From a virus (taxonomy: Duplodnaviria > Heunggongvirae > Uroviricota > Caudoviricetes): DNA of 44,895 nucleotides. This document shows positions 1 to 35,652 of this stretch, in pieces (positions within the stretch are counted from its first letter, which is position 1; every line of letters starts with the position of its first letter). The position numbers and the translations under genes were made by a program. Below the pieces are notes generated by a model, which was not told where the DNA came from, did not search any database, and saw only the letters and a program-made list of their open reading frames with translations. The DNA lies in IMG/VR virus record IMGVR_UViG_2851982317_000005. One strand, 5' to 3'.

Positions 1-1131
1 TCAAATGACCAGTTTTTTCCACTCCTTACCGCGTACATCGTTGTAAATATCGGTCATTTTTTGATTCGAATGACCTAGCAAAATTTTGGTATCAACCCCC
101 TGCTCTCTGAACAATCGCTCTGATAAAGATCTCTGCTCATGGAAAGAGGGTGGGGTGCCATTAGCACGCCAGTTGTAATCCACAGAATCCCGGGCTTTTT
201 TAAATGCAACTGTTAATGTTGCTGGCTTAACCATCCCGCCGCGCTTAGCTGTCCCTTTCGCGTGATGGTGGTGCAATAGCCACGGACTAAGAACACAATC
301 GCGGCAGGATGACACTACATCATCCAGGGTGAGATTTAATTTATCGCAACGCAGAGCCAGAGGGATGGCAATCCGGGTTCCTGTTTTTTGCTGTTCGACA
401 TGAAGATAACCATCCCGGATATCCGAAAATTGCATTTTGCAAATATCTGAAAGGCGCTGGCCTGTCATCAGTGCCAGCAGCATACCGCGCTGTAAAAAGT
501 AACCATCCTTTTCCGCTGCGTTATAAATCATCATCCACTCATCAAAAGTCAGTCGCTGTCTTGATATCCGCACCTGCGGTTTTTTTGCCGATTCTGCAGG
601 GTTAAAGCCTGGCGGGACATCGCCCGTTTGCTGAGCTTCCCGGAAAACATCGATCAGTACCTTCCTGAAAATTTGTCCCATTCTGTTATGTCCTCTGGCC
701 TTGTACTCTTCCAGTACTGATACCACATCTTTTACGGTTATGGCATCTAACGGTCTGGTGCCAAAACGTTCATCAAATACCCTGAGAGGGGCCGCTTTCT
801 GTTTCAGCGTGTTGAGTTTGATCTCGCCGTTTTCATATCTTTCCTGTTGAATTTTTCTGTAATTATTCAGAAAAATGGTAACGGTTGATGAACCGCCGGT
901 ATCACTAATAATTTTCTCCTGCAGACTGAGCATTTGTTCCATTTGCTGCCGGGCAAGACGGCTGTTCGCTTCTGCTGCAATAGTTTCTGCCAGTTTCTGG
1001 TCAATACTGCCGAGACCGTGATTTTTGCCTGTTATGGGATGCCTGTAACGCCAGTAAACTTTGTTATTTCTTTTGTCAAAATACGGAGATAATCCCGGAA
1101 CATTGGTTTTATATTTTCGCGGGCGCGCCAT
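1..1131 (-). CDS. int: Tyrosine recombinase / phage integrase (lambda family), complete
   Basis: 376-aa ORF with typical lambda-family integrase N-terminus (MARPRKYKT...YWRYRHPITGK) and C-terminal catalytic region; stop codon sits at window positions 1-3; followed upstream by xis-like gene. Confidence 0.9.
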   Translation of the reverse strand: MARPRKYKTNVPGLSPYFDKRNNKVYWRYRHPITGKNHGLGSIDQKLAETIAAEANSRLARQQMEQMLSLQEKIISDTGGSSTVTIFLNNYRKIQQERYENGEIKLNTLKQKAAPLRVFDERFGTRPLDAITVKDVVSVLEEYKARGHNRMGQIFRKVLIDVFREAQQTGDVPPGFNPAESAKKPQVRISRQRLTFDEWMMIYNAAEKDGYFLQRGMLLALMTGQRLSDICKMQFSDIRDGYLHVEQQKTGTRIAIPLALRCDKLNLTLDDVVSSCRDCVLSPWLLHHHHAKGTAKRGGMVKPATLTVAFKKARDSVDYNWRANGTPPSFHEQRSLSERLFREQGVDTKILLGHSNQKMTDIYNDVRGKEWKKLVI

Positions 1132-1357
1132 CTTCCAGTATCCTCTTCAAAGCAGGGTGATCTGTGGCGATCACCTCCGGCTTGTTTACCATTCCGACAA
1201 AGCGAGCTTGCGGATCCACTCGCCAGCGTCTTCCAACTTTTTTGGGGAGAGGAAATATCATTCCGGCTTTAGCGTATTTACTTAACGTACTCGGAGTTGG
1301 GACCGGTTCACTGAATTCCTCTTTTGCCCACTCAGTGAGCAGAATAAGTCTTGCCAT
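1109..1357 (-). CDS. xis: Excisionase-like small DNA-binding protein
   Basis: 82-aa basic ORF immediately upstream of and overlapping int start, the position of excisionase in lambdoid phages; true start may be internal. Confidence 0.6.
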   Translation of the reverse strand: MARLILLTEWAKEEFSEPVPTPSTLSKYAKAGMIFPLPKKVGRRWRVDPQARFVGMVNKPEVIATDHPALKRILEDGAPAKI

Positions 1358-1421
1358 GAGCGTCGTTCGCTAATCATGGTCGCCGCCACTATAGCTGGTG
1401 GGCAACGACCGGGGTTGAACA

Positions 1422-3893
1422 TTAAAAATCAGCCTGATTCGGGATCAGTTTTTGCCAGATAACTGAAACGTATTTTGCCTGGTAACGGGCGTCATCAAGT
1501 GCATTATGGCGCTCACCTTCGAATGGAATAGCCGTTCTGGCATCGAAGTCTATGGCTTTCCCCAGCTCAACGATTGTGCGTACATCGCGATCGTTGTAGT
1601 AACGCCACGGGCAGGGGATCCCCTGCCGTTCGTATGAACGGCGCAAAATCGTGTTGTCGAAGTTGGCTCCATTTCCCCAGACCTGAACAAAAAATTCACC
1701 GGAGTTTTCGTCGATAAATTCCCGCAATTGTAACAGTGCATCATCTAACGGGATTTCATCGGTCATAATGGCAGACTGCGCTTCACGTGATTGCTTCAGC
1801 CACCTTTTAATGACGTCACGATCAATGACTCCGCCAGCAGTTTCCAGATCGATAGTCTTACTAAATTCCGGTCCCATATCTCCGGTTTGCGGATCGAAAA
1901 ATATTGCACCTATTGAGATAATCGGAGCATCAGGATTTTTTCCCATGGTTTCAAGGTCGATCATTAGATGGTCACACGTCCTGCTGGTGGATGTGATAAC
2001 GTGATGACCGTTCATCGTAATTAAGGGATCTGCCGTCTCGCCAGTTTCACTATCGCTGGCGTGATCCTGAGCGCTACCAGCATTCTCCTTGTGTGGATGT
2101 TCAGCGCCTTCCATTTCCTTCGGATCATTTTCCTGAACTTCAACCTGATTCTCTTCATCGAATGTTTCCTGGTATGTTGCGTCACCCATCACCGCGCCAC
2201 AATCAGGGCAGTTGCCGCCACCGCTTTGACCGCAGGCGGTGCAGACTTTTTCCGGTTCCTGTTGCGCTACTGGCTCAGGTTGTTTCGTTTCTGGCTCGTT
2301 TTGTTGCGTATTTGGGCTGTTTTGTTCCGCTTTCTGGTCGTTCTGTTCCGATTCTTGCTGGTTCTGGTTTACAGAATCGCGGGTTTCAATCCCCTTTACC
2401 CATTTCGGATCATTCGGGTCGCTAATCCCTGCAACAAATTCTCCGCGAGAGGCAGCAAGCAACTTATCGGCGTCAGGCTGGCTGATATTGGCTGCCTGCA
2501 TAATTTTGTTTACTTCGTCAGCGGTAACTTTTACCGGCTCTGGTTGTGCGGTCGTGTCAGATGCACCAGTATTTTGTTGTGAACCTGAGTACGTGCCGTT
2601 TTTACGTGCGAAGTATTCCTCTTTTGTGATTTCCGTAGCTCCCAAGGCTAGTGCTTTTTCCAGACCAGAAAGTTTGTTTGCGCGACCGTATTTTTCGCCA
2701 TCCTTGTCGGTGAAGAGGAAGTAGAACGGCCCTTCACGCTCTACAGATGGTTCGACTTCCACTTTGCATTCGGTTTTTTCGTTGTCCGGAATTGCCGTTT
2801 CCACTGCATCAGTTTCTGGTACTGGCGACGAGAGAGTATCAGTTGCGCTCTGATTTCTTCCTTCATCTTCAAACACGCCCTTTGTAGTCAGGTATTCAGT
2901 AATGTATTTGTTCAGTGCCACAGGGTCTTTGTGAATGTCGATCGGACGTTCACGGACAAGGCCAAAAATAGTCTGGCGGTCGTAGCGAAGGGCATCAGGC
3001 TGTTTGCGCATTGATGCCGAGATACGCTTCCAGTCTTCGCGATCGTTGTCGATAACTTCATTTTTTGCCCAGCGATGGATGCTGCCGTCAATGTTTCCGG
3101 CATCCACATCACCAGGCCAGAGAGCGTAGGCCAGTTCGTCATCCAGTGTTTTCCATGTCTGCTTGTATTCGCGATGAGTGGCAGCAATGACCGGGCTGAT
3201 TTTTCCTGTTGAATTTTCAGTGTTCTGTTGATTGGCTCTGGCGCGGGCGAGATCAACAACAGACGTGTATTTTCCGGTTTCCTTGCGTTCACCTTCGCGA
3301 CGTTTTTTCCAGATGCGCATCTCTGCCTGAATTTCGGGCCATTTGGCACCAGGCTTACATTTATGCTTAACCCACCCGATGGCATGCAGCTTAAGCTCCG
3401 GATACATGGCGTTAACTTCTGACATTTTCATCAACGCTTCAACGATATGTCCGTCGAATGTTGCCATGTCTTCCTGCAACAATTCCTGCGCGCTAATCAC
3501 CATATCAACGGTGATGTTTTCACATGTGTCGAACTTAACCATGACAGCGTTCTGTACTTCAGGGGCTAGGTTGTCAAAAGTGACGTTCATCGGATCGGAT
3601 TCAGTCTCGACCGGGACAAAGGAAGCAGACGCCTCATCCCAGCGGTTTTCCTGCATATATTCAGCATCCCAGGAATCGAGGGCAGGGCGGGGTATACCGG
3701 GTTTATCCTCGCAAACAAGAAATTTATAAGCGCAGTCCTGAACAGCCGGATAATGTTCCAGGAATTGCCAGTGAAATTTTGCGCGGGCGCGACGTTCATC
3801 ACCGGCTTCAATGGCAGTGGCTACAGCGACGGCACCTTCTTCCTTTATTGCCTGTTCGTCCGGAATGGCGGCGCAAATAAAGACTTTACTCAT
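1422..3893 (-). CDS. Large early-left protein with C-terminal DnaQ-like (DEDDh) 3'-5' exonuclease domain and CxxC...CxxC zinc ribbon; YdfE-like, often annotated exodeoxyribonuclease VIII-like
   Basis: 823-aa ORF; C-terminal region shows Exo I-like motif (IDLETMG) and Exo III-like motif (HNALDDARY); zinc ribbon CTACGQSGGGNCPDCG; Q/E/N/P-rich low-complexity linker; position downstream of dicB/ydfD as in Qin prophage. Confidence 0.7.
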   Translation of the reverse strand: MSKVFICAAIPDEQAIKEEGAVAVATAIEAGDERRARAKFHWQFLEHYPAVQDCAYKFLVCEDKPGIPRPALDSWDAEYMQENRWDEASASFVPVETESDPMNVTFDNLAPEVQNAVMVKFDTCENITVDMVISAQELLQEDMATFDGHIVEALMKMSEVNAMYPELKLHAIGWVKHKCKPGAKWPEIQAEMRIWKKRREGERKETGKYTSVVDLARARANQQNTENSTGKISPVIAATHREYKQTWKTLDDELAYALWPGDVDAGNIDGSIHRWAKNEVIDNDREDWKRISASMRKQPDALRYDRQTIFGLVRERPIDIHKDPVALNKYITEYLTTKGVFEDEGRNQSATDTLSSPVPETDAVETAIPDNEKTECKVEVEPSVEREGPFYFLFTDKDGEKYGRANKLSGLEKALALGATEITKEEYFARKNGTYSGSQQNTGASDTTAQPEPVKVTADEVNKIMQAANISQPDADKLLAASRGEFVAGISDPNDPKWVKGIETRDSVNQNQQESEQNDQKAEQNSPNTQQNEPETKQPEPVAQQEPEKVCTACGQSGGGNCPDCGAVMGDATYQETFDEENQVEVQENDPKEMEGAEHPHKENAGSAQDHASDSETGETADPLITMNGHHVITSTSRTCDHLMIDLETMGKNPDAPIISIGAIFFDPQTGDMGPEFSKTIDLETAGGVIDRDVIKRWLKQSREAQSAIMTDEIPLDDALLQLREFIDENSGEFFVQVWGNGANFDNTILRRSYERQGIPCPWRYYNDRDVRTIVELGKAIDFDARTAIPFEGERHNALDDARYQAKYVSVIWQKLIPNQADF

Positions 3894-3985
3894 TTTGTTT
3901 TACCTCATTACAGATTTAAGGGTGAACAAATCCCTGCCATTGCTGGCATATAAGAATGAAATCGGATGTTTATTACGGAACTGTT

Positions 3986-4177
3986 TTAAAGACCTGCCGG
4001 GATTTCGTTATTATCCTGGTGAATAACTTTATCGACCGGGTAACAGTTACCGGGAATTTTCTGTTCGGTTGCTGCAGTCACACACTCCTGCATTGTCCTG
4101 TGAACACTGACTGCAATATCAACTGGCTCTCCGGAAACAAGAAAAACTGTCAGAACAAGTGCAAATGCTGTATTCAT
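3986..4177 (-). CDS. ydfD: YdfD-like small lysis/membrane protein (Qin family)
   Basis: 63-aa product MNTAFALVLTVFLVSGEPVDIAVSVHRTMQEC... with N-terminal hydrophobic segment; recalled similarity to Qin YdfD; start directly follows the dicB stop. Confidence 0.6.
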   Translation of the reverse strand: MNTAFALVLTVFLVSGEPVDIAVSVHRTMQECVTAATEQKIPGNCYPVDKVIHQDNNEIPAGL

Positions 4178-4362
4178 TGCCAGCATCCTTTTTGTATCGG
4201 ACGTAAACGGGCCAACATTGAAAGAATGCATATTTTATTTAATAGCTTCCGTTCGTGTTTTCTCTTGTTAATGGCATCTTCAGTAAATACAGGGTTACTG
4301 ATAGTGACACCAATTTCAAAACAACCTTCAGACGTATTAACGTTTGGTAATAACGTTTCCAT
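4174..4362 (-). CDS. dicB: Cell division inhibitor DicB
   Basis: 62-aa product METLLPNVNTSEGCFEIGVTISNPVFTEDAINKRK... matches recalled DicB sequence; located just downstream of DicF as in the Qin dicB operon. Confidence 0.75.
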   Translation of the reverse strand: METLLPNVNTSEGCFEIGVTISNPVFTEDAINKRKHERKLLNKICILSMLARLRPIQKGCWQ

Positions 4363-4531
4363 TATCGCGTCCTCAACAATGAATTTTGTGATGCGGTGCC
4401 TGGTGCCTCCAGGTGACGTTAACCAGTTAACAATTAACGCCGGATACAGAGAATCCACCCATAACACTGTTTTTGGTTTTAACTGTTCCGCGTGCGCTCA
4501 GCCGCATTCACCGCATCACAAAATTCACTTT

Positions 4532-4589
4532 AAAAAGGGCGGCAGAGCAGTCACGGAGTAAAACTGATACCGCCAAACGTCACCAGAAA
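4532..4589 (-). ncRNA. dicF: DicF small regulatory RNA (ftsZ-targeting sRNA of the dicB operon)
   Basis: Minus-strand sequence TTTCTGGTGACGTTTGGCGGTATCAGTTTTACTCCGTGACTGCTCTGCCGCCCTTTTT matches recalled DicF including 3' stem and U-run; sits between ydfC and dicB. Confidence 0.7.
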
Positions 4590-4901
4590 ATTGATAACAG
4601 AGGGCGTTGCAGCGGGGTTGTCACTTAAGCGTATGGTCAACCTGACAACCCGGTGTCCTCAACGGGGGAAGGAATAACCCCGCCATACTTACCGCCGCAC
4701 CATTTCGCGGATTGCCACAACCGGAAGCGCACGGTCGACGAAAATTTAACGACAGGCTATCTATGAACCAGCTACCTCGCCGTGCGCTTTCGCGTTATGG
4801 TCTGACTTTGCAGGGAAATATCCTTTCAGTAAACTGTCTGTGCCGGATGCTCACCCGTGGAGAACTCCTTACTTACCAACCTTAGCTTCGTTGGTTAGCT
4901 A

Positions 4902-5120
4902 TTAACGCGGGTATGTAATCATTCTGGCAATGCTTAATGCCGCTGCTTTTTCCAGATTAGTGATATCCTGCTCCAGAGCGGACAGATTTTCAGCCTGCTT
5001 AGCCCTGGCTTCATTGGCCCATTTCAGATCCTGCGCTGCATTAATTTTCTGGTACGTCCACTCATAAAGTTCATCATCGGTATAGTCTGGCGCGATGATG
5101 ACGGGTTCTCGTTTCTGCAT
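4902..5120 (-). CDS. ydfC: YdfC-like small protein (dicB operon)
   Basis: 72-aa ORF in the expected position and size for Qin ydfC. Confidence 0.5.
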   Translation of the reverse strand: MQKREPVIIAPDYTDDELYEWTYQKINAAQDLKWANEARAKQAENLSALEQDITNLEKAAALSIARMITYPR

Positions 5121-5149
5121 ACTGATTCCTCGCGGTGCTGTTTCGCTTA

Positions 5150-5278
5150 TCAGCCGTTAGATTTTGCCGAACTGGAAAGCGCCTGTTTAAATTCGTTGAA
5201 GCTGAGAGCTTCTTCGCCTTCGGCAAGACCTTCGAAGTATTCTTCGTAAGCCTTTTCCATGATTGTGTCGAAATCCAT
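5150..5278 (-). CDS. ydfB: YdfB-like small acidic protein (42 aa)
   Basis: Manually translated 42-aa ORF MDFDTIMEKAYEEYFEGLAEGEEALSFNEFKQALSSSAKSNG, below the 60-aa cutoff of the ORF track; size and position match Qin ydfB. Confidence 0.5.
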   Translation of the reverse strand: MDFDTIMEKAYEEYFEGLAEGEEALSFNEFKQALSSSAKSNG

Positions 5279-5279
5279 A

Positions 5280-5435
5280 TCACTCACCTGAGTTTCTTTC
5301 CAGCCAGCGACGGGCACCATTTTCGGTTTTAAACGTTTTGCTTTTGGTATACGTCATCGCGGTGAACGTACCGTCCTGGTTGGGGAACACGCCACATACC
5401 AGAGATTCGCTGTTGCCAAGATCGATAGTATCCAT
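5280..5435 (-). CDS. ydfA: YdfA-like small protein (51 aa)
   Basis: Internal Met MDTIDLGNSESLVCGVF... preceded by GAGG ribosome-binding site; first gene of the leftward operon. Confidence 0.5.
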   Translation of the reverse strand: MDTIDLGNSESLVCGVFPNQDGTFTAMTYTKSKTFKTENGARRWLERNSGE

Positions 5436-5616
5436 GCTGACCTCATTTCCCCTTAACGCCGGGGTAGCGGAACAAAAACCTGCTGCATAGTTATTAAAGT
5501 TGAACCCTGCCGTCATGTTCTTACGCCTCGGGCTGGCTACTTAACCCCTGACCACTGCCTGGTAACTCGAAGTATTGCCCTGCATTCTGTGGGGCGGGGT
5601 GGGTGGCAGGTATATA

Positions 5617-5657
5617 ATGTACTTTGTGTTCATTGTTGTAAAGTACATTTAGTACAT
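5617..5657. promoter_or_regulatory. Candidate left operator/promoter region with three ATGTACT/AGTACAT half-sites
   Basis: 7-mer ATGTACT at 5617-5623 and its reverse complement at 5642-5648 and 5651-5657, next to a TATAAT-like hexamer, between ydfA and the repressor gene. Confidence 0.4.
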
Positions 5658-5732
5658 TTTGTGTGTAAAAAAATGAGATGGGATAAAGTGAAGCACAAAC
5701 CCGGAGGAAGGCGCTACCGGATTTATGCTGGT

Positions 5733-6152
5733 TTAAGAGGCTTTTTGTTTTTTCTTTCGTGCTAACTCTTCGTAAATTGCATTGTACTTCTGTTTTTTCT
5801 CTTCAAGAGTTTTTAAAAGTTCATCTGTCTCACTGTCAGGGAGCTCGTCCAGAAGGTCAATGATGATTTTTTGTCTTGGATTTAACTCCTGATAGAAACG
5901 TACCTGTCCACTTTCTTCTGTGTCCTCTCCCAAAAGATAGGTTGGTGTTGTTCCTATTAGTGTTGCTAATTCCCTTAATTTCTCCCGGCGAGGAATTGTT
6001 TCGCCATTAAACCATTTGCTAACCGCTTTTGGTGTTAATTTCATTCGACGGGCAATTTCTGCCTGCCTTCCATGTTGTTCATAACCAGCGTTTTCACAGG
6101 CTAGCGCAAGCCTACTGGCGAACTCTTTACGCGCTTTATCTTCATGAACCAT
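5733..6152 (-). CDS. Prophage repressor, XRE-family helix-turn-helix (CI/RacR/DicA-like, no peptidase domain)
   Basis: 139-aa ORF with HTH-like segment (QAEIARRMKLTPKAVSKWFNGETIP); divergent from Cro-like gene. Confidence 0.7.
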   Translation of the reverse strand: MVHEDKARKEFASRLALACENAGYEQHGRQAEIARRMKLTPKAVSKWFNGETIPRREKLRELATLIGTTPTYLLGEDTEESGQVRFYQELNPRQKIIIDLLDELPDSETDELLKTLEEKKQKYNAIYEELARKKKQKAS

Positions 6153-6176
6153 AAGTTCAATGATATTCGCTCTTGA

Positions 6177-6207
6177 ATGTACTGTCAGTTCTGTTATAGC
6201 ATGTACT
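6177..6207. promoter_or_regulatory. Candidate right operator region: two direct ATGTACT repeats
   Basis: ATGTACT at 6177-6183 and 6201-6207 in the 80-bp divergent intergenic region; same 7-mer as the left-side sites. Confidence 0.4.
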
Positions 6208-6231
6208 CAAAGTTCACATTGTGAGGGTGAT

Positions 6232-6486
6232 ATGAACCAGAAAACACTTGAAGATGTAATCAAAACTGTTCGCGTTGCTGTTGTGGCCGACGTTTGTGGT
6301 GTCAGCCAAAGAGCAATCTATAAATGGATGGATAACGGAAAATTGCCTCGCACAGAATATACCGGCGAAACAAATTACGCTGAAAAAATCGCTCTTGCAT
6401 CAAACGGATTATTTTCTGCCGATGCAATTTTAACTATTGGCAGGAATAAAACTACTACGAAAAAGCTGATGGGAGTTGATTCATGA
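6232..6486 (+). CDS. Cro/YdaS-like small HTH regulator
   Basis: Start at internal Met MNQKTLEDVIKTV...; HTH-like VADVCGVSQRAIYKWMDNGKLP; divergent from repressor. Confidence 0.6.
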   Translation: MNQKTLEDVIKTVRVAVVADVCGVSQRAIYKWMDNGKLPRTEYTGETNYAEKIALASNGLFSADAILTIGRNKTTTKKLMGVDS

Positions 6487-6908
6487 AAATCAAGCATGAA
6501 CACATCCGCATGGCGATGAATGCCTGGGCGCATCCGGACGGCGAAAAAGTACCGGCTGCGAAAATTACCAAAGCGTATTTCGAGCTGGGAATGACGTTCC
6601 CGGAACTGTATGACGACAGCCATCCGGAAGCCCTGGCTCGCAATACTCAGAAAATTTTCCGCTGGGTGGAGAAAGACACCCCTGATGCGGTTAAAAAAAT
6701 TCAGGCGTTGTTACCAGCTATCGAAAAAGCAATGCCACCTCTGCTGGTGGCCCGAATGCGCAGTCATAGCTCAGCCTATTTTCGGGAACTAGTGGAGACG
6801 CGGGAACGACTGGTGAGAGACGCTGATGATTTTGTCGCAGTGGCGATCGCTGGTTTCAACCAGATGAATCGTGGTGGCCCTGCAGGAAATATTGTGGCTG
6901 TGCATTGA
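6483..6908 (+). CDS. YdaT-like protein (Rac-type regulatory/toxin-like module partner)
   Basis: 141-aa ORF beginning MKIKHEHI..., overlapping the Cro-like gene stop; size and position as Rac ydaT. Confidence 0.55.
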   Translation: MKIKHEHIRMAMNAWAHPDGEKVPAAKITKAYFELGMTFPELYDDSHPEALARNTQKIFRWVEKDTPDAVKKIQALLPAIEKAMPPLLVARMRSHSSAYFRELVETRERLVRDADDFVAVAIAGFNQMNRGGPAGNIVAVH

Positions 6909-6973
6909 CTCGCAATATTCATACCGGATCGCTTCCGGCAATTTGTGAGTAAAAAGATTCGGTATCAAAAGAG

Positions 6974-8050
6974 GTGAGTATGGCTAACGCCTGGCTCAGA
7001 TTATGGCATGACATGCCAAATGACCCTAAGTGGCGAACAATTGCCAGGGTGTCAGGGCAGCCAATTGCAACAGTGATGGCAGTGTATATCCACCTCCTGG
7101 TGAGCGCGTCACGAAATGTCACGCGAGGTCACATTGAGGTCACGACAGAAGATTTGGCAAGTGCGCTCGACGTGACAGAAGAGGTAATTGATTCAATTTT
7201 GCAGACGATGCAGGGGCGGGTACTTGATGGTGATTTAATCACTGGATGGGAAAAACGCCAGGTGCTTAAAGAGGACAACGGCAATATTTCGCAAACCGCA
7301 AAATCTCCTGCAGAGCGCAAGAGGGCGCAGCGAGAGAGGGAAAGAAAGCGGGAACAAAATGGCGATTGTCACGGCGCGTCACGAAATGTCACGCATATGT
7401 CACGACGAGTCACGACAGATAAAGATACAGATAAAGATACAGATCAAGAAGATCAAAACACTATGGTCCATGGCGTAAAAAACGCCACGAACCAGGCAGG
7501 GGATGTTCAGACCGTCAATCTTGGTCAGCCAGCAGGCACGACACCGGAAGCCGATTCAGCGTATGCGCTGAAAGCCGATTCGGGCGCTGTGCAGCAGGTG
7601 ATGACCGCAAGGCCGGAGCAATCACACCAACTGCAGCAGCCCGAAGCCGATTCCGCCATTCAGCGGGAAGCCGATCGGGTAGTCCCGGAAAACACCGGGC
7701 AGTCTGTGGGACGAGTGGATTATCCGGATGTGTTCGAACAGGTCTGGCGGGAGTACCCGTTGCGTGCCGGAGCAAACCCGAAGAAATCCGCTTTCAGTGC
7801 CTGGAAGGCCAGATTACGCGAGGGGGTGCCACCAGAGGCCATGCTGGATGGCGTGAGGCGTTACGCAAGATACTTGGCGGCTACCGGGAAAACGGGAACG
7901 GAATTTGTTCAGCGAGCGACGACGTTTTTTGGACCGGACCGGAATTTTGAGAACCCCTGGTTGCTCCCGGTAAGCGGCACGAACAACCAGCGTTGTGTGA
8001 ATCATATTTCTGAACCGGATAACGAAATTCCGCCGGGCTTCAGGGGGTAA
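6974..8050 (+). CDS. Replication initiator / replisome organizer (YdaU/O-like) containing internal iteron arrays
   Basis: 358-aa ORF; two clusters of GTCAC(G) repeats inside the coding sequence; C-terminal region typical of phage replication proteins. Confidence 0.55.
   Translation: MSMANAWLRLWHDMPNDPKWRTIARVSGQPIATVMAVYIHLLVSASRNVTRGHIEVTTEDLASALDVTEEVIDSILQTMQGRVLDGDLITGWEKRQVLKEDNGNISQTAKSPAERKRAQRERERKREQNGDCHGASRNVTHMSRRVTTDKDTDKDTDQEDQNTMVHGVKNATNQAGDVQTVNLGQPAGTTPEADSAYALKADSGAVQQVMTARPEQSHQLQQPEADSAIQREADRVVPENTGQSVGRVDYPDVFEQVWREYPLRAGANPKKSAFSAWKARLREGVPPEAMLDGVRRYARYLAATGKTGTEFVQRATTFFGPDRNFENPWLLPVSGTNNQRCVNHISEPDNEIPPGFRG
7106..7150. repeat. Iteron cluster 1 (four GTCAC motifs at about 10-11 bp spacing)
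   Basis: gcgtcacgaaatgtcacgcgaggtcacattgaggtcacgacag read directly. Confidence 0.6.
7365..7445. repeat. Iteron cluster 2 (five GTCACG motifs) plus AT-rich tandem repeat; candidate origin of replication
   Basis: ttgtcacggcgcgtcacgaaatgtcacgcatatgtcacgacgagtcacgacag followed by ataaagatacag x2; the 19-mer gcgtcacgaaatgtcacgc is shared with cluster 1. Confidence 0.6.
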
Positions 8051-8090
8051 GTGTTAATTTCTGGTCATGAGGTAATTTTCAGGAGGGCTT

Positions 8091-8513
8091 GTGGCAAAAG
8101 TTTTTACACAAGAAGAGCGGGAAAAAATTAAAGGGCAGGTTGTTGAACTCGTACGCCAAAGTGGGCGCGAGACGTTACGACAACTGGAAACTAAAACTGG
8201 GGCAACAAGATATCTGATGAGCGTTCTGGCCAGAGAGCTGGTTGCCAGTGGCGATGTATACAACTCTGGTTACGGGTTATTCCCGTCTGAACAGGCGCGT
8301 AAGGACTGGCAAAATGCCCGTAAAAAGCTCTCAAGGGCAAAGCCGAAGAAACCATCTGCGGTTGATCCGGACCTAATCTGGTCATTACCAGACGGAGAAA
8401 TACGCCGCTACGACAGGCGCCTGAATATAATCTGTCGCGAGTGCCGGAAGAGCGAAGCTATGCAGCGTGTACTGGCTTTCTATCAGGGTAATTTTCAGGA
8501 GGCGGTACTGTGA
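8091..8513 (+). CDS. Hypothetical protein, replication/nin-region
   Basis: 140-aa ORF with plausible composition; no Walker A motif, so not a DnaC-like helicase loader. Confidence 0.4.
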   Translation: MAKVFTQEEREKIKGQVVELVRQSGRETLRQLETKTGATRYLMSVLARELVASGDVYNSGYGLFPSEQARKDWQNARKKLSRAKPKKPSAVDPDLIWSLPDGEIRRYDRRLNIICRECRKSEAMQRVLAFYQGNFQEAVL

Positions 8514-9203: not shown

Positions 9204-9372
9204 TTTTGGTTCAACTAAATACAACGTCAGTTTTGAAAAATGGCATGAACTGTTAATGGACTATGCAGAGTTACGTGGTGGCAGTGCTGCTGATGCTGAA
9301 GCATGGCGTGATGATTATGAAGCAGGAAAAAATCCGGTCGAAGCATATTGTGATGAGTGGGGCGATGAATGA
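9196..9372 (+). CDS. Small hypothetical protein
   Basis: 58-aa ORF MADFGSTKYNVSFEKWHELL..., stop overlaps the next start (ATGA). Confidence 0.35.
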   Translation: MADFGSTKYNVSFEKWHELLMDYAELRGGSAADAEAWRDDYEAGKNPVEAYCDEWGDE

Positions 9373-9656
9373 GCGAGATTAATTATCAGGAAGGGTATGA
9401 AACGGCGGAGCAAGCAAAACCAGTGGCATGGCGATATCGCTACGTGAAAAAAGGCGTTACGGACTTTCAGGAGAAGTAGTGGTCTGTTGACTGGAAATAT
9501 GTACCGAAAAAAGAGGATTGTAACGACAGGCCGAACTATCAAATTCAGGCCTTATTCACTGCCTCACCAGCCCTGGTTACATCAGAAGAACTGGTTAAAG
9601 CTGTGCACTTTTATGAACAACTAAAACGCGAAAATCCACCAACATCCGGCAACTAG
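9369..9656 (+). pseudogene. Small nin-region ORF interrupted by an in-frame amber (TAG) codon at 9477-9479
   Basis: Codon-by-codon reading: MSEINYQ...DFQEK-TAG-WSVDWKYVPKKED...PPTSGN continues in the same frame for 59 more codons. Confidence 0.4.
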
Positions 9657-9867: not shown

Positions 9868-10545
9868 ATGTCCATCATTTTTAATGGACACTATCGTATG
9901 AAACACCGGACCTGGATCACTGAAGCTTTACGTCTTCACTTTGAAGAACATTTACCCCGGGTTGTGGCCGGGCGTCGCCTGGGTGTACCAAAATCAACAG
10001 TTTGTAGTATGTTCGTGCGCTTTCGGAGAGCTGGCCTTTCGTGGCCTTTGCCCGCAGGCATGTCGGAGCAGGAACTTGATGCCTGCCTTTACGGACAATT
10101 TTCCACGGTACCAGTCGTACGTCCTGAAAGCACCGTTATATCCGAAGCCCCCGTGGTAAAAAAACGTCCCCGGCGGCCCAACTTCCCTTATGAGTTTAAA
10201 ATCGCCTTAGTGGAGCAGTCACTGCAGCCCGGAGCCTGTGTGGCGCAGATCGCCCGGGAAAACGGAATCAACGATAACCTGCTCTTCAACTGGCGCCATC
10301 AATACCGGAAAGGTGGCCTGCTGCCTTCCGGAAAAAATATGCCGGCACTGCTTCCCGTGACGTTAACGCCGGAGCCGGATAATAAAATCCCGGCCCCCGC
10401 ACAGGAACCAGAGCAGATAAATACACCGTCCGACAGTCTGTGTTGTGAGCTGGTTCTGCCGGCCGGAACTCTCAGGCTTAAAGGTAAACTGACGCCGGCG
10501 TTATTACAGACACTTATCCGCGAAATAAAAGGGAGCAGCCACTGA
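9868..10545 (+). CDS. tnpA: IS66-family accessory protein TnpA (orfA)
   Basis: Contains the conserved YEFKIALVEQSLQPGACVAQIARENGINDNLLFNWRHQY HTH region; ORF start may be N-terminally extended. Confidence 0.75.
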   Translation: MSIIFNGHYRMKHRTWITEALRLHFEEHLPRVVAGRRLGVPKSTVCSMFVRFRRAGLSWPLPAGMSEQELDACLYGQFSTVPVVRPESTVISEAPVVKKRPRRPNFPYEFKIALVEQSLQPGACVAQIARENGINDNLLFNWRHQYRKGGLLPSGKNMPALLPVTLTPEPDNKIPAPAQEPEQINTPSDSLCCELVLPAGTLRLKGKLTPALLQTLIREIKGSSH

Positions 10546-10892
10546 TGATATCTCTCCCTGCAGGTTCGCGTATCTGGCTGGTTGCAGGTATCACCGATAT
10601 GCGAAATGGCTTTAACGGCCTGGCATCAAAAGTTCAGAACGTCCTGAAGGATGACCCGTTCTCCGGACACCTGTTCATCTTCCGCGGACGCCGGGGTGAC
10701 CAGATAAAAGTGTTGTGGGCTGACAGTGACGGACTGTGCCTCTTCACCAAACGCCTGGAGCGGGGCCGCTTCGTCTGGCCAGTCACCCGTGACGGCAAGG
10801 TGCACCTTACTCCGGCTCAGTTATCCATGCTTCTTGAAGGTATCAACTGGAAGCACCCGAAACGAACGGAACGCGCTGGAATCCGCATATAA
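10545..10892 (+). CDS. tnpB: IS66-family TnpB (orfB)
   Basis: 115-aa ORF MISLPAGSRIWLVAGITDMRNGFNGL... typical IS66 Orf2; overlaps orfA stop. Confidence 0.85.
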   Translation: MISLPAGSRIWLVAGITDMRNGFNGLASKVQNVLKDDPFSGHLFIFRGRRGDQIKVLWADSDGLCLFTKRLERGRFVWPVTRDGKVHLTPAQLSMLLEGINWKHPKRTERAGIRI

Positions 10893-10911
10893 CCCGTTGT
10901 AAAGTGAGGAT

Positions 10912-12483
10912 ATGGACACCTCACTTGCTCATGAGAACGCCCGCCTGCGGGCACTGTTGCAGACGCAACAGGACACCATACGCCAGATGGCTGAATACAA
11001 CCGCCTGCTCTCACAGCGGGTGGCGGCTTATGCTTCTGAAATCAACCGGCTGAAGGCGCTGGTTGCGAAACTGCAGCGTATGCAGTTCGGTAAAAGCTCA
11101 GAAAAACTTCGTGCAAAAACCGAACGGCAGATACAGGAAGCACAGGAGCGAATCAGCGCACTTCAGGAAGAAATGGCGGAAACGCTGGGTGAGCAATATG
11201 ACCCGGTACTGCCATCCGCCCTGCGCCAGTCTTCAGCCCGTAAACCGTTACCGGCCTCACTTCCCCGTGAAACCCGGGTTATCCGGCCGGAAGAGGAATG
11301 CTGTCCTGCCTGTGGTGGTGAACTCAGTTCTCTGGGATGTGATGTGTCAGAGCAACTGGAGCTTATCAGCAGCGCCTTTAAGGTTATTGAAACACAACGT
11401 CCGAAACAGGCCTGTTGCCGGTGCGACCATATCGTGCAGGCACCAGTACCTTCAAAACCCATTGCACGCAGTTATGCCGGAGCGGGGCTTCTGGCCCATG
11501 TTGTCACCGGGAAATATGCAGACCATCTGCCGTTATACCGCCAGTCAGAAATATACCGTCGTCAGGGAGTGGAGCTGAGCCGTGCCACACTGGGGCGCTG
11601 GACAGGTGCTGTTGCTGAACTGCTGGAGCCGCTGTATGACGTCCTGCGCCAGTATGTGCTGATGCCCGGTAAAGTCCATGCTGATGATATCCCCGTCCCG
11701 GTCCAGGAGCCGGGCAGCGGTAAAACCCGGACAGCCCGGCTGTGGGTCTACGTCCGTGATGACCGTAACGCCGGTTCACAGATGCCCCCGGCGGTCTGGT
11801 TCGCGTACAGTCCGGACCGGAAAGGTATCCATCCACAAAATCACCTGGCCGGTTACAGCGGTGTGCTTCAGGCCGATGCTTACGGTGGTTACCGGGCGTT
11901 ATACGAATCCGGCAGAATAACGGAAGCCGCGTGTATGGCTCATGCCCGGAGAAAAATCCACGATGTGCATGCAAGAGCGCCCACCTACATCACCACGGAA
12001 GCCCTGCAGCGTATCGGTGAACTGTATGCCATCGAGGCAGAGGTCCGGGGCTGTTCAGCAGAACAGCGTCTGGCGGCAAGAAAAGCCAGAGCCGCGCCAC
12101 TGATGCAGTCACTGTATGACTGGATACAGCAACAGATGAAAACACTGTCGCGTCACTCAGATACGGCAAAAGCGTTCGCATACCTGCTGAAACAGTGGGA
12201 TGCACTGAACGTGTACTGCAGTAATGGCTGGGTGGAAATCGACAACAACATCGCAGAGAACGCCTTACGGGGAGTGGCCGTAGGCCGGAAAAACTGGATG
12301 TTCGCGGGTTCCGACAGCGGTGGTGAACATGCGGCGGTGTTGTACTCGCTGATCGGCACATGCCGTCTGAACAATGTGGAGCCAGAAAAGTGGCTGCGTT
12401 ACGTCATTGAACATATCCAGGACTGGCCGGCAAACCGGGTACGCGATCTGTTGCCCTGGAAAGTTGATCTGAGCTCTCAGTAA
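10912..12483 (+). CDS. tnpC: IS66-family transposase (orfC)
   Basis: 523-aa ORF with N-terminal coiled-coil/leucine zipper, CxxC zinc-finger region and DDE-type core typical of IS66 transposases. Confidence 0.85.
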
Positions 12484-12998: not shown

Positions 12999-13058
12999 AT
13001 GCGACACATAGAGATTAGCCTCTTACGGACCGAAAGGTCAAGGAGAAGCAGGCTATGA
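12999..13058 (+). CDS. mok: mok-like leader ORF translationally coupled to hok
   Basis: 19-codon ORF whose TGA stop overlaps the hok ATG (ATGA); inverted repeats in the leader. Confidence 0.35.
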   Translation: MRHIEISLLRTERSRRSRL

Positions 13059-13210
13059 AGCAGCAAAAGGCGATGTTAATCGCCCTGATCGTCATCTGTT
13101 TAACCGTCATAGTGACGGCACTGGTAACGAGGAAAGACCTCTGCGAGGTACGAATCCGAACCGGCCAGACGGAGGTCGCTGTCTTCACAGTCTACGAACC
13201 TGAGGAGTAA
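13055..13210 (+). CDS. hok: Hok/Gef-family type I toxin (HokD/RelF-like)
   Basis: 51-aa product MKQQKAMLIALIVICLTVIVTALVTRKDLCEVRIRTGQTEVAVFTAYEPEE, manually translated; downstream hairpin plus U-run at 13279-13304. Confidence 0.85.
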   Translation: MKQQKAMLIALIVICLTVIVTALVTRKDLCEVRIRTGQTEVAVFTVYEPEE

Positions 13211-13557: not shown

Positions 13558-13947
13558 TTGTTTGACTTTTATTCCATTAATGTAGGGGCTTTACACTGGA
13601 ACCAGTTTATTTATACTTTATACGCCAGCCTGAACAACTGGCACCTGCTGCGCCAGCAGAGACAACCGATGGCGCACGATACCAAATTACACAATTCTGA
13701 TGATTCTGCCGTCTTTGCCAGCAGGTGCGGACGGCGTTTTCATGCATTCAAATCGGACTGGTTCCAGCATCCACCATGCACTGAAGAGCAGGCTGAATGG
13801 ATAATTCAGTGTTACCGCAGGCGCGGATACGAGGTTAAAAAAGCCCTTAGCCTCGACTACCGTCACTGGATAATCTCAGTCAGATTGCCTTACTCCGAAC
13901 GCCCGCCGCGTCCGTCCCACACATTCCAGCAACGCATCTGGAGGTAA
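13558..13947 (+). CDS. Hypothetical protein, Rem-like by position; true start probably internal
   Basis: ORF between hok and the ydfU-like gene, the order seen in Qin (hokD-rem-ydfU). Confidence 0.4.
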   Translation: MFDFYSINVGALHWNQFIYTLYASLNNWHLLRQQRQPMAHDTKLHNSDDSAVFASRCGRRFHAFKSDWFQHPPCTEEQAEWIIQCYRRRGYEVKKALSLDYRHWIISVRLPYSERPPRPSHTFQQRIWR

Positions 13948-13948
13948 C

Positions 13949-14997
13949 GTGCGGGTATTACTTCGACCTGTTCTGGTACCGGAACTCGGGCTGGTGATCG
14001 TTAAGCCGGGCCGTGAATCCATGCCGGTATTCCACAATACCCGGTTACTGGTGGAGCCGGAACCGAAAAGCATGCGTAATCTGCCGTCCGGGGTCGTTCC
14101 TGCCGCTCGCCAGCCGCTGGTGGAAGACAAAACATTGCTGCCGTTTTTCAGTAACGCACGGGTGATTCGTGCTGCTGGTGGTGCTGGTGCATTGTCTGAC
14201 TGGCTGTTGCGCCATATTAAATCCTGCCAGTGGCCACACGGCGATTATCATCACAGCGAAACCGTCATTCACCGTTATGGTACCGGCGCAATGGTGTTGT
14301 GCTGGCACTGCGACAACCAGCTGCGTGACCAGACATCCGAATCACTCGAGCAACTTGCTCATCAAAACCTGTCAGCATGGATGATTGACGTCATCGGTCA
14401 CGCAATAAGCGGTACGCAGGAGCGTGAATTATCTCTGGCTGAATTATCCTGGTGGGCGGTCCGCAATCAGGTGGCGGACGCGCTACCGGAAGCGGTATTA
14501 CGTCGTTCGCTGGGGTTGCGTGCGGAAAAATCCGCTCAATGTACCGTGAAAGCGACATCGTACCGGGAGAGCAGACCGCCACCAGCATACTGAAACAGCG
14601 CACAAAAAATCTTGCGCCGCTGCCTCACGCCCACCAGCAACAGAACCCACCACAGGAAAAGACGGTGGTCAGCATTGCCGTTGATCCTGAGTCTCCGGAA
14701 TCTTTTATGAAACGACCTAAACGTCGCCGCTGGGTTAACGAGAAATACACACGCTGGGTGAAGACACAGCCGTGTGCGTGTTGTGGTAAGCCAGCCGACG
14801 ATCCCCATCACCTGATTGGTCATGGTCAGGGCGGAATGGGGACAAAATCTCACGATATTTTCACGCTACCGCTGTGTCGGGAGCATCACAACGAGCTTCA
14901 TGCGGATCCGCTGGCGTTCGAAGAAAAGCATGGTTCTCAGGTTGATTTAATTTTTCGTTTTCTTGATCACGCCTTTGCAACTGGCGTGCTTGGGTAA
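13949..14997 (+). pseudogene. YdfU-like (DUF968-type, HNH-like zinc finger) gene split by a frameshift near 14515-14535
   Basis: Two overlapping ORFs in different frames (13949-14593 and 14452-14997) jointly span 1049 nt, about one 349-codon gene minus one base; C-terminal part has CxxC...HH motifs; A5 run at the junction. Confidence 0.5.
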
Positions 14998-16345: not shown

Positions 16346-16421
16346 GGCCCTTTAGCTCAGTGGTGAGAGCGAGCGACTCATAATCGCCAGGTCGCTGGTT
16401 CAAATCCAGCAAGGGCCACCA
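16346..16421 (+). tRNA. ileZ: tRNA with CAU anticodon, ileX/ileZ-like (tRNA-Ile2)
   Basis: Manual cloverleaf: acceptor GGCCCTT/AAGGGCC, anticodon loop CTCATAA, T-loop TTCAAAT, encoded CCA; closely resembles recalled E. coli ileX. Confidence 0.75.
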
Positions 16422-16521: not shown

Positions 16522-16595
16522 GCGTTGTTAGCTCAGCCGGACAGAGCAATTGCCTTCTAAGCAATCGGTCACTGGTTCGAATCCAGTACAGCGCG
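16522..16595 (+). tRNA. argO: tRNA-Arg (UCU anticodon)
   Basis: Manual cloverleaf: acceptor GCGTTGT/ACAGCGC (one G-U), anticodon stem ATTGC/GCAAT, loop CTTCTAA, T-loop TTCGAAT. Confidence 0.75.
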
Positions 16596-16708
16596 CTATA
16601 TTCATTCTTCCAGATTCCTTCCGGCAGAGCCTTATACTGAAATATACCTGGCTCAGGATATTGTTGAAAATATTTTATGTTTGTCAAAAATAAAAGTTCT
16701 GTTAAGTA

Positions 16709-17229: not shown

Positions 17230-17454
17230 CCGGGTATCAGTTAGCGGGAGAAATTTTTAAATACTTCACAATTCAGGCGGTTGACTGTTGTCTGGTTTGC
17301 GGGGAGTTTGTTAAAAGAAACTGGCATGGTGAATCCCCCTGTGCGGAGGGGCAATCAGCGAGTAGGTATATGGGATAATCGCGGATTCAGGTGCTGGTAC
17401 TGAATTCACCGGGAGGCACCCGGCACCATGCAATGGCACATAGCGCCACTCTCC

Positions 17455-17490
17455 AGCCCCTCTCCGGAGGGGCTGTTTATATTGATTTTG
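17455..17490 (+). terminator. Hairpin terminator between convergent moron genes
   Basis: agcccctctccggaggggct followed by gtttatattgatttt. Confidence 0.45.
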
Positions 17491-34299: not shown

Positions 34300-34303
34300 T
34301 CCC

Positions 34304-35592: not shown

Positions 35593-35610
35593 TGCAAAAT
35601 GTTTTATGTG

Positions 35611-35638: not shown

Positions 35639-35652
35639 ATGGAGCATGAGGA

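Follow-up and report, generated by a model that had tools for sequence, protein, structure and literature searches.

The minus strand of the analyzed DNA was described in a preliminary account as carrying a sequence matching the DicF RNA, followed by dicB and a ydfD-like lysis gene and preceded by ydfA/B/C-like ORFs, an arrangement familiar from the defective Qin prophage of Escherichia coli K-12. This raises the question of whether the locus is a genuine and intact dicBF operon, and how far its likeness to Qin extends beyond the cassette itself. The stretch of DNA that was analyzed, referred to below as the window (44,895 nucleotides), is 100% identical to the chromosome of E. coli E2528-C1 and contains a ~45-kb lambdoid prophage inserted at ompW. 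In the E2528-C1 genome record ompW is located directly past the int gene, and a partial copy of ompW is found at the opposite prophage end.

The 53-nt DicF small RNA is encoded at positions 4537-4589 of the minus strand. The Rfam covariance model RF00039 (gathering score, 48 bits), which had been proposed as a check of this assignment, matched window positions 4537-4588 (minus strand) over its entire length (model positions 1-52 of 52) with a score of 76.7 bits and an E-value of 2.5e-15, and no non-canonical pairs were flagged. The reverse complement of 4537-4589 is identical to K-12 dicF (b1574) at all 53 positions. The range of 4532-4589 that was originally given for the RNA additionally includes the U-tract at 4532-4536, which follows the 3' stem-loop of DicF and is predicted to form an intrinsic terminator with it. 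In the minimum free energy (MFE) fold of the RNA, 15 unpaired nucleotides at the 5' end are followed by the 3' hairpin and U5 (-15.9 kcal/mol, z -2.3). Because of the complete identity to K-12 DicF, both seed regions defined previously (PMC5069750) are intact, namely the 3' region for ftsZ and the 5' region for xylR, pykA, and manX. The ftsZ leader, which is the target of DicF, is conserved at 99% identity or more in 5388 of 5424 genomes. The DicF:ftsZ duplex energy calculated by RNAduplex (-38.5 kcal/mol) was dropped as evidence, as it is matched by 105 of 1000 shuffled DicF sequences and thus does not discriminate. Since RNAduplex ignores accessibility, the claim that DicF pairs with ftsZ rests on the published compensatory mutations by which this pairing was proven (PMC5069750).

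The dicB gene (4174-4362, minus strand) encodes a 62-aa cell-division inhibitor and has exactly the coordinates of the RefSeq dicB CDS in the identical genome record. The protein is matched over its full length (1-62 of 62) by both Pfam PF05358 (126.3 bits, cutoff 27) and NCBIfam NF049927 (131.9 bits, cutoff 100), with E-values of 3.6e-37 and 5.2e-39. The preliminary description was to be abandoned if a formal search gave no significant alignment to DicF or DicB; both were found to align in full length with scores above the curated cutoffs. Compared with K-12 DicB, the window protein is identical at 54 of 62 residues (87%). The eight differences (K2E, Q36H, E39K, V47L, L55P, M56I, P57Q, A61W) include five within the last eight residues, and the C-terminus reads RLRPIQKGCWQ in the window versus RLRLMPKGCAQ in K-12. 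All eight map to family-variable columns in an alignment of 19 sequences, in which the window protein keeps 22 of 22 invariant and six nearly invariant columns. Binding of MinC by DicB, its ZipA-directed recruitment to the septum, MinC-dependent filamentation, and inhibition of ManYZ were demonstrated for the K-12 allele only (PMC6832061).

The start of a ydfD homolog (3986-4177, minus strand; 63 aa, DUF1482) overlaps the dicB stop by 4 nt (ATGA). This is the lysis gene expected after dicB: it scores 88 bits against PF07358 (cutoff 25), and its product is identical at 59 of 63 residues to K-12 YdfD, the 'lysis protein' of Qin, which interacts with IspG (PMC8835842). The ydfA/B/C-like ORFs anticipated upstream proved to be close homologs of the K-12 genes, all on the minus strand. 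They are ydfA, the first gene of the operon (5280-5435; 51 aa, DUF1391, PF07151 at 96.2 bits), ydfB (5150-5278; 42 aa), and ydfC (4902-5120; 72 aa), the latter two being named so in RefSeq, and their products are identical to K-12 YdfA, YdfB, and YdfC at 49 of 51, 41 of 42, and 70 of 72 residues, respectively. The genes form a single collinear series on one strand, ydfA-ydfB-ydfC-dicF-dicB-ydfD, with dicF located between ydfC and dicB. The same genes are found in the same order and on the same strand in the dicBF operon of K-12 Qin (ydfA-ydfB-ydfC-dicF-dicB-ydfD-ydfE; b1571-b1577), and all elements named initially are present, intact, and in K-12 order.

At the DNA level, the Qin cassette is ~96% identical to window positions 3127-5473, that is, from 38 nt upstream of the ydfA start codon into the exonuclease/ydfE gene, and the four Ydf proteins YdfA, YdfB, YdfC, and YdfD are 94-98% identical. 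The possibility that the DicF and DicB matches reflect chance or low-complexity resemblance is refuted by the covariance and HMM scores, by the identity to K-12, and by the collinearity of DNA ~96% identical over 2.3 kb; nothing was found in its favor. We are highly confident that the cassette is a genuine, intact dicBF operon, and this judgement embraces the control and processing proposed below together with the identity of the components.

Both untranslated spacers that flank dicF contain candidate processing sites. The 312-nt ydfC-dicF spacer (4590-4901, minus strand) lacks 29 bp just after ydfC relative to K-12, the one indel by which the spacer lengths of the window and Qin differ. A long imperfect hairpin is predicted at ~4716-4800, and the same hairpin is predicted in K-12. 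A DicF precursor of 190 nt with a 5' end cut by RNase III has been reported (PMC10448788); its start would correspond to ~4726, on the 3' arm of this hairpin. The predicted hairpins common to the window and K-12 are located at the published RNase III cut positions (PMC10448788; PMC5069750).

The 174-nt dicF-dicB spacer (4363-4536, minus strand) is characterized by an unusually stable predicted fold, with an MFE of -67.7 kcal/mol (z -5.81) that was reached by none of 200 shuffles. The predicted structure includes a closing helix with arms at ~4509-4536 and 4370-4398 and hairpins at 4416-4442 and 4400-4414, and the Shine-Dalgarno sequence of dicB, GAGGA (4370-4374), pairs in it with the U-tract at the helix base. 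A scan of genome contigs for the DicF core gave only six loci, and conservation was therefore assessed with 47 unique spacer variants from IMG/VR contigs with 87-100% identity, a set of limited statistical power. The helix core and the two 3' hairpins are conserved among these variants, and variable columns are found at 40 of 120 paired versus 36 of 62 unpaired positions. The full MFE structure is only partly supported, as the central domain (spacer nt 50-93) is not conserved and is broken in many variants. The long closing helix of the model fits the published RNase III cut. We further infer that the U-tract may mask the dicB ribosome-binding site, through U:purine pairs that are weak and include some breaks. 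The predicted stable fold of this spacer is the one mildly new detail of the locus.

The cassette had been called Qin-type, a designation that holds for the cassette but not for its surroundings. Homology to Qin extends to 5473 and does not reach the promoter region, and both the promoter/operator region and the immunity genes of Qin differ from those of the window. The prophage repressor gene (5733-6152, minus strand) encodes a 139-aa protein composed of an HTH_3 domain (37.9 bits) and a C-terminal helical region, and no S24 peptidase domain was found in this protein. Its alignment with DicA covers 112 aa at 29% identity (E 5e-15), and its score against the NCBIfam DicA model is 56.8 bits, below the cutoff of 101; judged by its sequence, the repressor is DicA-like in architecture but heteroimmune. 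The divergently oriented gene at 6232-6486 (plus strand) encodes an 84-aa Cro-like HTH protein, annotated in RefSeq as a helix-turn-helix transcriptional regulator; it matches HTH_17 with 23.3 bits (E 7.8e-05), which is below the Pfam cutoff of 27, and gave no alignment with DicC. We rejected a DicA/DicC immunity region on the basis of the low similarity of the repressor to DicA, below the family cutoff, and of a Cro-like protein unrelated to DicC.

Two further features separate the prophage from Qin. The Rem antirepressor, encoded between ydfU and hokD in Qin, has no homolog at the equivalent position of the window prophage: the 92-aa ORF found there (13669-13947, between hokD and the DUF968 gene) was rejected as a candidate antirepressor, giving no alignment with Rem. 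The integration sites are also distinct, Qin being located next to ynfP/rspB and the window prophage at ompW. For annotation, the window is a clear illustrative case: the cassette is mobile and becomes joined by recombination to unrelated immunity regions, so the term 'dicB operon' implies neither 'DicA-regulated' nor 'Qin'.

A candidate early-left promoter accompanied by operator-like repeats was identified at 5614-5657 (minus strand). It consists of a TTTACA-17-CATTAT site (5642-5614) and of ATGTACT motifs at 5617-5631 and 5643-5657, and the region also contains an inverted repeat (I4). OR-like operator-like repeats were found between the repressor and cro-like genes (6177-6215), where they overlap a promoter-like site for the repressor gene (6188-6160, minus strand). 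The 15-nt operator-like motif ATGTACTNNNNGTTC has four matches in 44.9 kb, all of them at 5617-5657 or 6177-6215, so that it occurs only on both sides of the repressor gene; none of 100 shuffles reached four matches. Promoter-like sites are about as numerous in this region as expected from shuffles (4 versus 4.1), and the promoter call therefore rests on the overlap with the operator repeats. Because one cluster of the motif overlaps the promoter-like site upstream of ydfA, the cassette looks like a repressor-controlled early-left operon. The candidate promoter region is not homologous to dicBp of Qin.

Distal to dicB in the same leftward gene string is the gene for an 823-aa exonuclease (1422-3893, minus strand) with a Rv2179c-like 3'-5' exonuclease domain (213 bits). 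Over its first 255 aa, which reach to the IS2 junction of K-12 ydfE, the protein is 96% identical to the K-12 sequence, and the gene is the intact version of the ydfE pseudogene, which is truncated by IS2 in K-12. Past the exonuclease, at the ompW-proximal prophage end, are the intact xis (1109-1357, minus strand; Pfam Exc) and int (1-1131, minus strand; Pfam Arm-DNA-bind_1 and Phage_integrase) genes. The prophage also encodes replication, Q, lysis, head, and tail genes, and no N-type antiterminator gene was recognized in it. The expectation of a more complete prophage with int and xis was borne out, as the element is far more complete than Qin; the exonuclease gene intervenes between ydfD and xis. 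The prophage is not pristine: it has acquired an IS66-family insertion, its DUF968 gene is frameshifted, one ORF is interrupted by an internal stop, and several ORFs at its right end are truncated.

This damage, together with the tight repression of K-12 dicBF under standard conditions (PMC10448788), would be expected of a silent relic, that is, a cassette that is intact but never expressed in a defective prophage and that persists as a recent or hitch-hiking passenger. We consider such a fate very unlikely for several reasons. The six small genes and dicF are all intact, the invariant residues of DicB are kept, and thousands of genomes carry the cassette, often more than once, with at least ~96% identity. 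The lower variability of paired as compared with unpaired spacer positions also argues against a relic. Moreover, DicF builds up in K-12 during stationary phase, and spontaneous firing of dicBp is seen in a subpopulation of cells (PMC10448788). A functional operon remains the favored reading of the locus.

The early region of the prophage is shared with Tritos (OV696610.1), an active prophage of AIEC strain LF82 that forms plaques (PMC9928086). The two are 94-97% identical over window positions 1414-8488, a segment that in Tritos comprises the exonuclease, ydfD, dicB, dicF, ydfCBA, CI, Cro, YdaT-like, replication, and DUF977 genes, and they also share part of the tail module (window 33598-38111). 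The CI repressor of Tritos is identical to the window repressor at 139 of 139 residues. The Tritos DicF, already annotated as a misc_RNA, has one base change at the last position, and its DicB is a K-12-type allele, unlike that of the window. The integrase, head genes, late region, and morons of Tritos differ from those of the window, and Tritos carries an ImmA/IrrE-type gene that is missing from the window and from the shared segments. Tritos is plaque-forming, whereas the window prophage carries an IS insertion. Another group of related elements is PPompW, the ompW-integrated lambdoid prophages of STEC, which occupy the same locus and carry ydfC and the dicB cell-division inhibitor. They are ~96% identical to the window over the ydfC-dicF-dicB segment but share only 33% of a 2.6-kb query, and their immunity region is different.

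In phage lambda, the FtsZ inhibitor Kil is encoded in the pL operon, and an RNase III site is present in the N leader. The likeness to lambda consists in the placement of a division inhibitor upstream of exo/xis/int, in a leftward early operon under repressor control, and in the processing by RNase III of a long leader helix beside a ribosome-binding site. It does not extend to sequence, as lambda has no sequence relationship to the cassette; DicB works via MinC/ZipA, and DicF is an RNA. By analogy with Kil, the cassette could mainly serve the phage lytic programme, blocking host division early and only after induction or infection. Its early-left position between the repressor and exo-xis-int genes, under apparent OL-type operators, is in line with such a role, as is the presence of the same cassette in the viable, plaque-forming Tritos (PMC9928086) and in other deposited phage genomes. 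We regard a predominantly lytic role as a real but less than even possibility. It does not exclude a benefit to the lysogen, and both ManYZ-dependent phage exclusion and stationary-phase DicF accumulation were demonstrated in a cryptic prophage lacking a lytic cycle (PMC6832061, PMC10448788).

The explanation that we favor, an intact dicBF operon under the control of a non-Qin repressor, can be summarized as follows. The operon ydfA-ydfB-ydfC-dicF-dicB-ydfD, running on into the exonuclease, xis, and int genes, would constitute the early-left operon of a mosaic lambdoid prophage. In the lysogen, the 139-aa DicA-family repressor of the prophage itself would hold the operon off by binding the operator repeats over a sigma-70-like promoter located ~180 nt upstream of ydfA. 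It would also bind the similar repeats in the repressor/cro intergenic region, which suggests an OL/OR-type layout. After derepression, RNase III, cutting at the ~4716-4800 hairpin and in the closing helix between dicF and dicB, would act with RNase E on the polycistronic transcript to yield the 53-nt DicF; transcription may also terminate at the hairpin and U-tract of DicF itself and so define its 3' end. These processing steps, and the functions considered next, are extrapolated from K-12 on the strength of identical or nearly identical sequences.

DicF, together with Hfq, would pair with the ribosome-binding region of ftsZ and block FtsZ synthesis, and would further repress xylR, pykA, and manX. 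Read-through transcripts would encode DicB, which is expected to bind MinC and take it to ZipA at midcell, where Z rings would dissolve. Acting through MinC, DicB would also disable ManYZ, and lambda-like phages that inject their DNA via ManYZ would be excluded. YdfD probably inhibits IspG and could lyse the cell. The net outcome would be a host division block combined with superinfection exclusion whenever the early-left operon fires. The activities ascribed to the two inhibitors in the preliminary description agree with published work, in which DicF represses ftsZ and DicB inhibits FtsZ function via MinC/ZipA (PMC5069750, PMC6832061), and in which DicB excludes phages that use ManYZ (PMC6832061). 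Because K-12 Northern blots revealed no full-length ydfABC-dicFB-ydfDE transcripts (PMC10448788), it is uncertain how much read-through reaches dicB.

The dicF-dicB core is present in 4645 of 5426 complete E. coli genomes (about 86%), with a median of two copies. Work on the dicBF cassette goes back to the 1980s, and dicB, ydfB, and ydfC already carry annotations in the identical RefSeq record, so the locus is already known and of little weight as a discovery. Its occurrence in Tritos and in other deposited phage genomes contradicts the statement made in 2016 that no sequenced phage carried it (PMC5069750). The cassette is found in near-complete prophages and also in lambdoid phages of demonstrated viability, which brings up to date an older view that confined it to defective prophages. 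The dicF gene lacks a PGAP annotation in the identical RefSeq record, which makes the RNA component of the cassette easy to miss.

Finally, the dicF-dicB spacer resembles the STnc100 RNA family (RF02076), the whole model of which it matches with a score of 40.1 bits (E about 1e-7 to 9e-7); the K-12 spacer behaves likewise and scores 34.4 bits. Both scores are below the gathering score of 47, and the spacer was not assigned to the family, the match being a resemblance only. The features common to the spacer and STnc100/PasD are an outer GGUG/CACC helix and a CCNGG-AGGCA-CCNGG hairpin. A true STnc100 copy is located in the late region of the window (17295-17484), whereas the spacer lies within the early-left operon; one difference between the two is compensatory (U-A to G-C), and the place of the 3' terminator part of STnc100 is taken in the spacer by the dicB start. 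It can be speculated, though we think it doubtful, that the spacer is a conserved STnc100/PasD-related RNA module. An RNase III cut in its ~28-bp closing helix would then make the 72-nt DicF 3' end and, at the same time, free the dicB ribosome-binding site, coupling DicF maturation to DicB translation, and STnc100-type sRNAs and the spacer would derive from one processing module of lambdoid phage transcripts. The STnc100-like spacer thus offers a small lead on a possible tie between DicB translation and RNase III processing.

The cassette ydfA-ydfB-ydfC-dicF-dicB-ydfD was identified on the minus strand of the window, in the known arrangement of a known system. The products of ydfA (5280-5435; DUF1391, 96 bits), ydfB (5150-5278) and ydfC (4902-5120) are identical to K-12 YdfA, YdfB and YdfC at 49/51, 41/42 and 70/72 residues, respectively. 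An untranslated spacer of 312 nt separates ydfC from dicF (4537-4589), which is followed by a second spacer of 174 nt, by dicB (4174-4362) and by ydfD (3986-4177; DUF1482, 88 bits; 59/63 residues identical to K-12 YdfD), the start of the latter overlapping the dicB stop codon as ATGA. The Rfam DicF covariance model matches 4537-4588 (minus strand) over its whole length with 76.7 bits (gathering score 48), and in the alignment with the 53-nt K-12 dicF every base is identical. The predicted fold has, as expected, an unpaired 5' region followed by a 3' hairpin and U5. Two DicB models, PF05358 of Pfam with 126.3 bits and NF049927 of NCBIfam with 131.9 bits (cutoff 100), each cover all 62 residues of the protein, of which 54 are identical to K-12 DicB. 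Among 19 diverse family members, each of the eight differing positions is variable, and all 22 invariant columns are kept in the window allele; thus nothing points to a defect in the protein. The preliminary description had placed dicB exactly, its DicF on the minus strand (4532-4589) included the terminator U-tract, and its ydfD-like lysis gene and ydfA/B/C-like ORFs are all present; significant alignments were obtained for both DicF (Rfam model, K-12 dicF) and DicB (Pfam and NCBIfam models). Directly after ydfC, at 4859-4888 (minus strand), 29 bp of K-12 (GGTGGAGTGCGTGCGCCGGACACGGGTGC) are absent from the window; this segment is bounded by CACGGGTG direct repeats and forms its own small hairpin when folded, and the length variants with and without it are each common across E. 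coli genomes.

All 44,895 bases correspond, with 0 mismatches, to the reverse complement of positions 1059420-1104314 of the E. coli E2528-C1 chromosome (NZ_CP035870.1). The window is a lambdoid prophage inserted at ompW of this strain, with int adjoining the intact ompW and a partial ompW copy at the other end. The RefSeq record of the identical DNA annotates dicB, ydfB, ydfC and the DUF1482 and DUF1391 proteins, and dicF is without annotation in it. The prophage encodes int, xis, an 823-aa exonuclease, the repressor, a Cro-like protein, a YdaT-like protein, a replication gene, hokD/sok and RusA; it further has a Q-type antiterminator, two tRNAs, genes for lysis, terminase and portal, a protease and capsid of HK97 type, and a lambda-like tail. 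By this gene content, from int through tail, the prophage is far more complete than Qin, as had been supposed. It is not pristine, and carries an IS insertion, a frameshift, an internal stop and several truncated right-end ORFs. In the early-right region, small hypothetical ORFs are separated from hokD by an inserted IS66-family element, ISCro1 (tnpA, tnpB and transposase; ~9868-12483), and the ORF beside it (9369-9656) has the internal stop. The DUF968 (ydfU-like) gene at 13949-14997 (plus strand) is frameshifted into two overlapping ORFs (13949-14593 and 14452-14997) and is a pseudogene in RefSeq.

The likeness to Qin, the cryptic prophage of K-12, is limited in extent. BLAST of the whole window against Qin aligned 3127-5473 at ~96% identity and found nothing beyond this stretch and the hokD region. 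The left edge of the homology coincides with the IS2 interruption of ydfE in K-12, and the right edge is found 38 nt before the ydfA start codon. Over its first 255 residues the exonuclease shares 96% identity with the product of the K-12 ydfE pseudogene, hence the window has an intact version of this gene. Past the right edge, in contrast, the repressor (139 aa) shares only 29% identity with Qin DicA (E 5e-15), and with the DicA model of NCBIfam it reaches 56.8 bits, under the cutoff of 101. Similarity of the Cro-like protein to DicC was undetectable, and the ORF at the position of Qin rem is unrelated to the antirepressor Rem. The cassette is thus a recombination module joined to a different immunity region. 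The term "Qin-type" therefore holds for the cassette and not for the prophage; with this caveat, the earlier observation is confirmed and its interpretation supported.

The 15-nt motif ATGTACTNNNNGTTC has four matches in the window at one mismatch or fewer, a count reached in 0 of 100 shuffled controls. Two copies (5617-5657) and another two (6177-6215) flank the repressor gene on either side. The left pair is an inverted repeat and shares bases with a promoter-like site (TTTACA-17-CATTAT, 5642..5614) of the operon strand, and the right pair overlaps a promoter-like site directly upstream of the repressor gene; the promoter scan alone is not significant (4 sites vs 4.1 expected). As putative operators, these pairs have the OL/OR layout of lambdoid phages, which suggests that the ydfA-dicF-dicB string is a repressor-controlled early-left operon. 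A Pfam domain search detected no S24 peptidase domain in the repressor, which therefore probably depends, as DicA does, on an antirepressor or other trigger; none was identified for it.

The best phage match is Tritos (OV696610.1), a phage of E. coli LF82, which is 94-97% identical to the window over the entire early region (1414-8488) and encodes the same repressor (139/139 residues). Its record already marks DicF as a misc_RNA. Tritos is one of the LF82 prophages that yield virions and plaque on an MG1655 derivative (PMC9928086). Its DicF is one base off the window and K-12 sequence, C to G at 29634, the last nucleotide of the 53-nt RNA, next to the U-tract, and scores 72.5 bits in Rfam vs 76.7. 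DicB and DicF were stated in 2016 to be absent from every phage genome sequenced by then (PMC5069750); as carriers among phage genomes now include Tritos, mEp460_ev081, several vB_Eco phages and PPompW phages, this statement is no longer valid.

The mechanism is described from K-12 experiments on sequences identical or nearly identical to those of the window. DicA represses dicBp in K-12. The polycistronic RNA has its start upstream of ydfA; cleavage by RNase III yields a 190-nt precursor, and cleavage by RNase E the 53-nt DicF (PMC10448788). The 3' end of the 53-nt form results from intrinsic termination and the 72-nt form from RNase III cleavage (PMC5069750, after Faubladier 1990). DicF pairs with the ribosome-binding region of ftsZ, as proven by compensatory mutations, and likewise represses xylR and pykA (PMC5069750). 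The DicB-MinC complex is taken to ZipA and Z rings dissolve; through MinC, DicB also blocks ManYZ, conferring ~100-fold resistance to lambda and other ManYZ-using phages (PMC6832061). YdfD is an inhibitor of IspG and brings about lysis (PMC8835842). The roles proposed for DicB and DicF as inhibitors of FtsZ function, and for DicB in phage exclusion, agree with this literature (PMC5069750, PMC6832061). Of 5424 genomes, 5388 carry an ftsZ leader with 99% identity or more; analysis of DicF:ftsZ pairing by RNAduplex failed to discriminate. A long imperfect hairpin is predicted at ~4716-4800 for the window and K-12 alike, and, by the position mapped from K-12, the 190-nt species would start at ~4726, in its 3' arm.

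The sole lead with some novelty is the dicF-dicB spacer, which is structured and resembles STnc100, a prophage sRNA family. In a permissive Rfam scan, 4330-4539 (minus strand) matched STnc100 (RF02076) over its full length; the 40.1 bits fall short of the gathering score, 47 (E ~1e-7 to 9e-7), and the K-12 spacer behaved in the same way (34.4 bits). The spacer alone folds at -67.7 kcal/mol (z = -5.8), and 0 of 200 shuffles fold equally well. In the predicted fold, the U-tract just 3' of DicF pairs in a closing helix of ~28 bp with the stretch that directly precedes dicB and contains the Shine-Dalgarno sequence GAGGA; the published 3' end of the 72-nt DicF would be located at ~4518, within the 5' arm of this helix. 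Among 47 unique variants (87-100% identity) taken from genome contigs and IMG/VR, the helix core and the two 3' hairpins are kept, with changes that are nearly all wobble-compatible and a few that are compensatory; the central domain is without support in this set, and the base of the closing helix has some breaks. Variable columns make up 40 of 120 paired and 36 of 62 unpaired positions. The window and K-12 spacers differ by only two substitutions, both in the closing helix and both still pairing as G-U. We interpret the spacer as a real structured element, very probably the RNase III substrate known since the 1990 work. The element might also mask the dicB ribosome-binding site, and it might have a common ancestry with the sRNAs of the STnc100/PasD family (treated in bioRxiv 10.64898/2026.05.13.724894). 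A hairpin common to the spacer and the true STnc100 copy of the window differs between the two by one compensatory pair. This true copy (17295-17484, plus strand; 132.4 bits) belongs to the late region, where it is preceded by the two tRNAs and followed by the holin gene; it stops just short of an iraM-like gene (~17510-17845, minus strand), which is convergent and has its 3' end there.

Of 5426 complete E. coli genomes, 4645 have a match to the 416-bp dicF-dicB core, covering at least 80% of the query in 3837 of them, with a median of 2 and a maximum of 9 copies per genome; E2528-C1 itself has a second copy besides that of the window. Balasubramanian et al. 2016 described the cassette in multiple prophage contexts, with multiple copies in O157:H7 (PMC5069750). 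DicB homologs form only 151 clusters in 5.8 billion proteins; those with a source name belong almost exclusively to Escherichia and Shigella, a few to Citrobacter and Salmonella, and the name DicB is already given to most of the named ones. Exact DicF-core matches were also found on contigs of metagenome-assembled genomes labelled Veillonella parvula and Collinsella sp.; most likely these contigs derive from an Escherichia phage or prophage and were mis-binned, and are not real occurrences outside Enterobacteriaceae.

Among other features of the prophage, the segment 12887-13210 (plus strand) encodes a sok antisense RNA (100.8 bits) together with hokD (13055-13210), a type I toxin gene, and its DNA shares ~97% identity with the hokD region in Qin. 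The Q-type antiterminator gene is followed by the two tRNA genes, at the usual stx position in Stx phages, and no toxin gene is annotated at this site. The first (16346-16421, plus strand) is tRNA-Met (CAT) according to ARAGORN vs tRNA-Ile, presumably lysidine-modified, in RefSeq; the second (16522-16596, plus strand) is tRNA-Arg (TCT). Rfam IS009 matches 43320-43518 (plus strand) with 225 bits, within the gene for tail fibre assembly towards the right end of the prophage. In Tritos a weaker match, whose 65.7 bits do not reach the gathering score (117), occurs at 22677-22775, just downstream of the tail-fibre gene cluster. Finally, moron-type cargo, by RefSeq names, includes an iss/bor-like serum-survival lipoprotein (20259-20552), an Ail/Lom outer-membrane protein (39200-39799) and, on the right-end side, a class I SAM-dependent methyltransferase (43616-44284).
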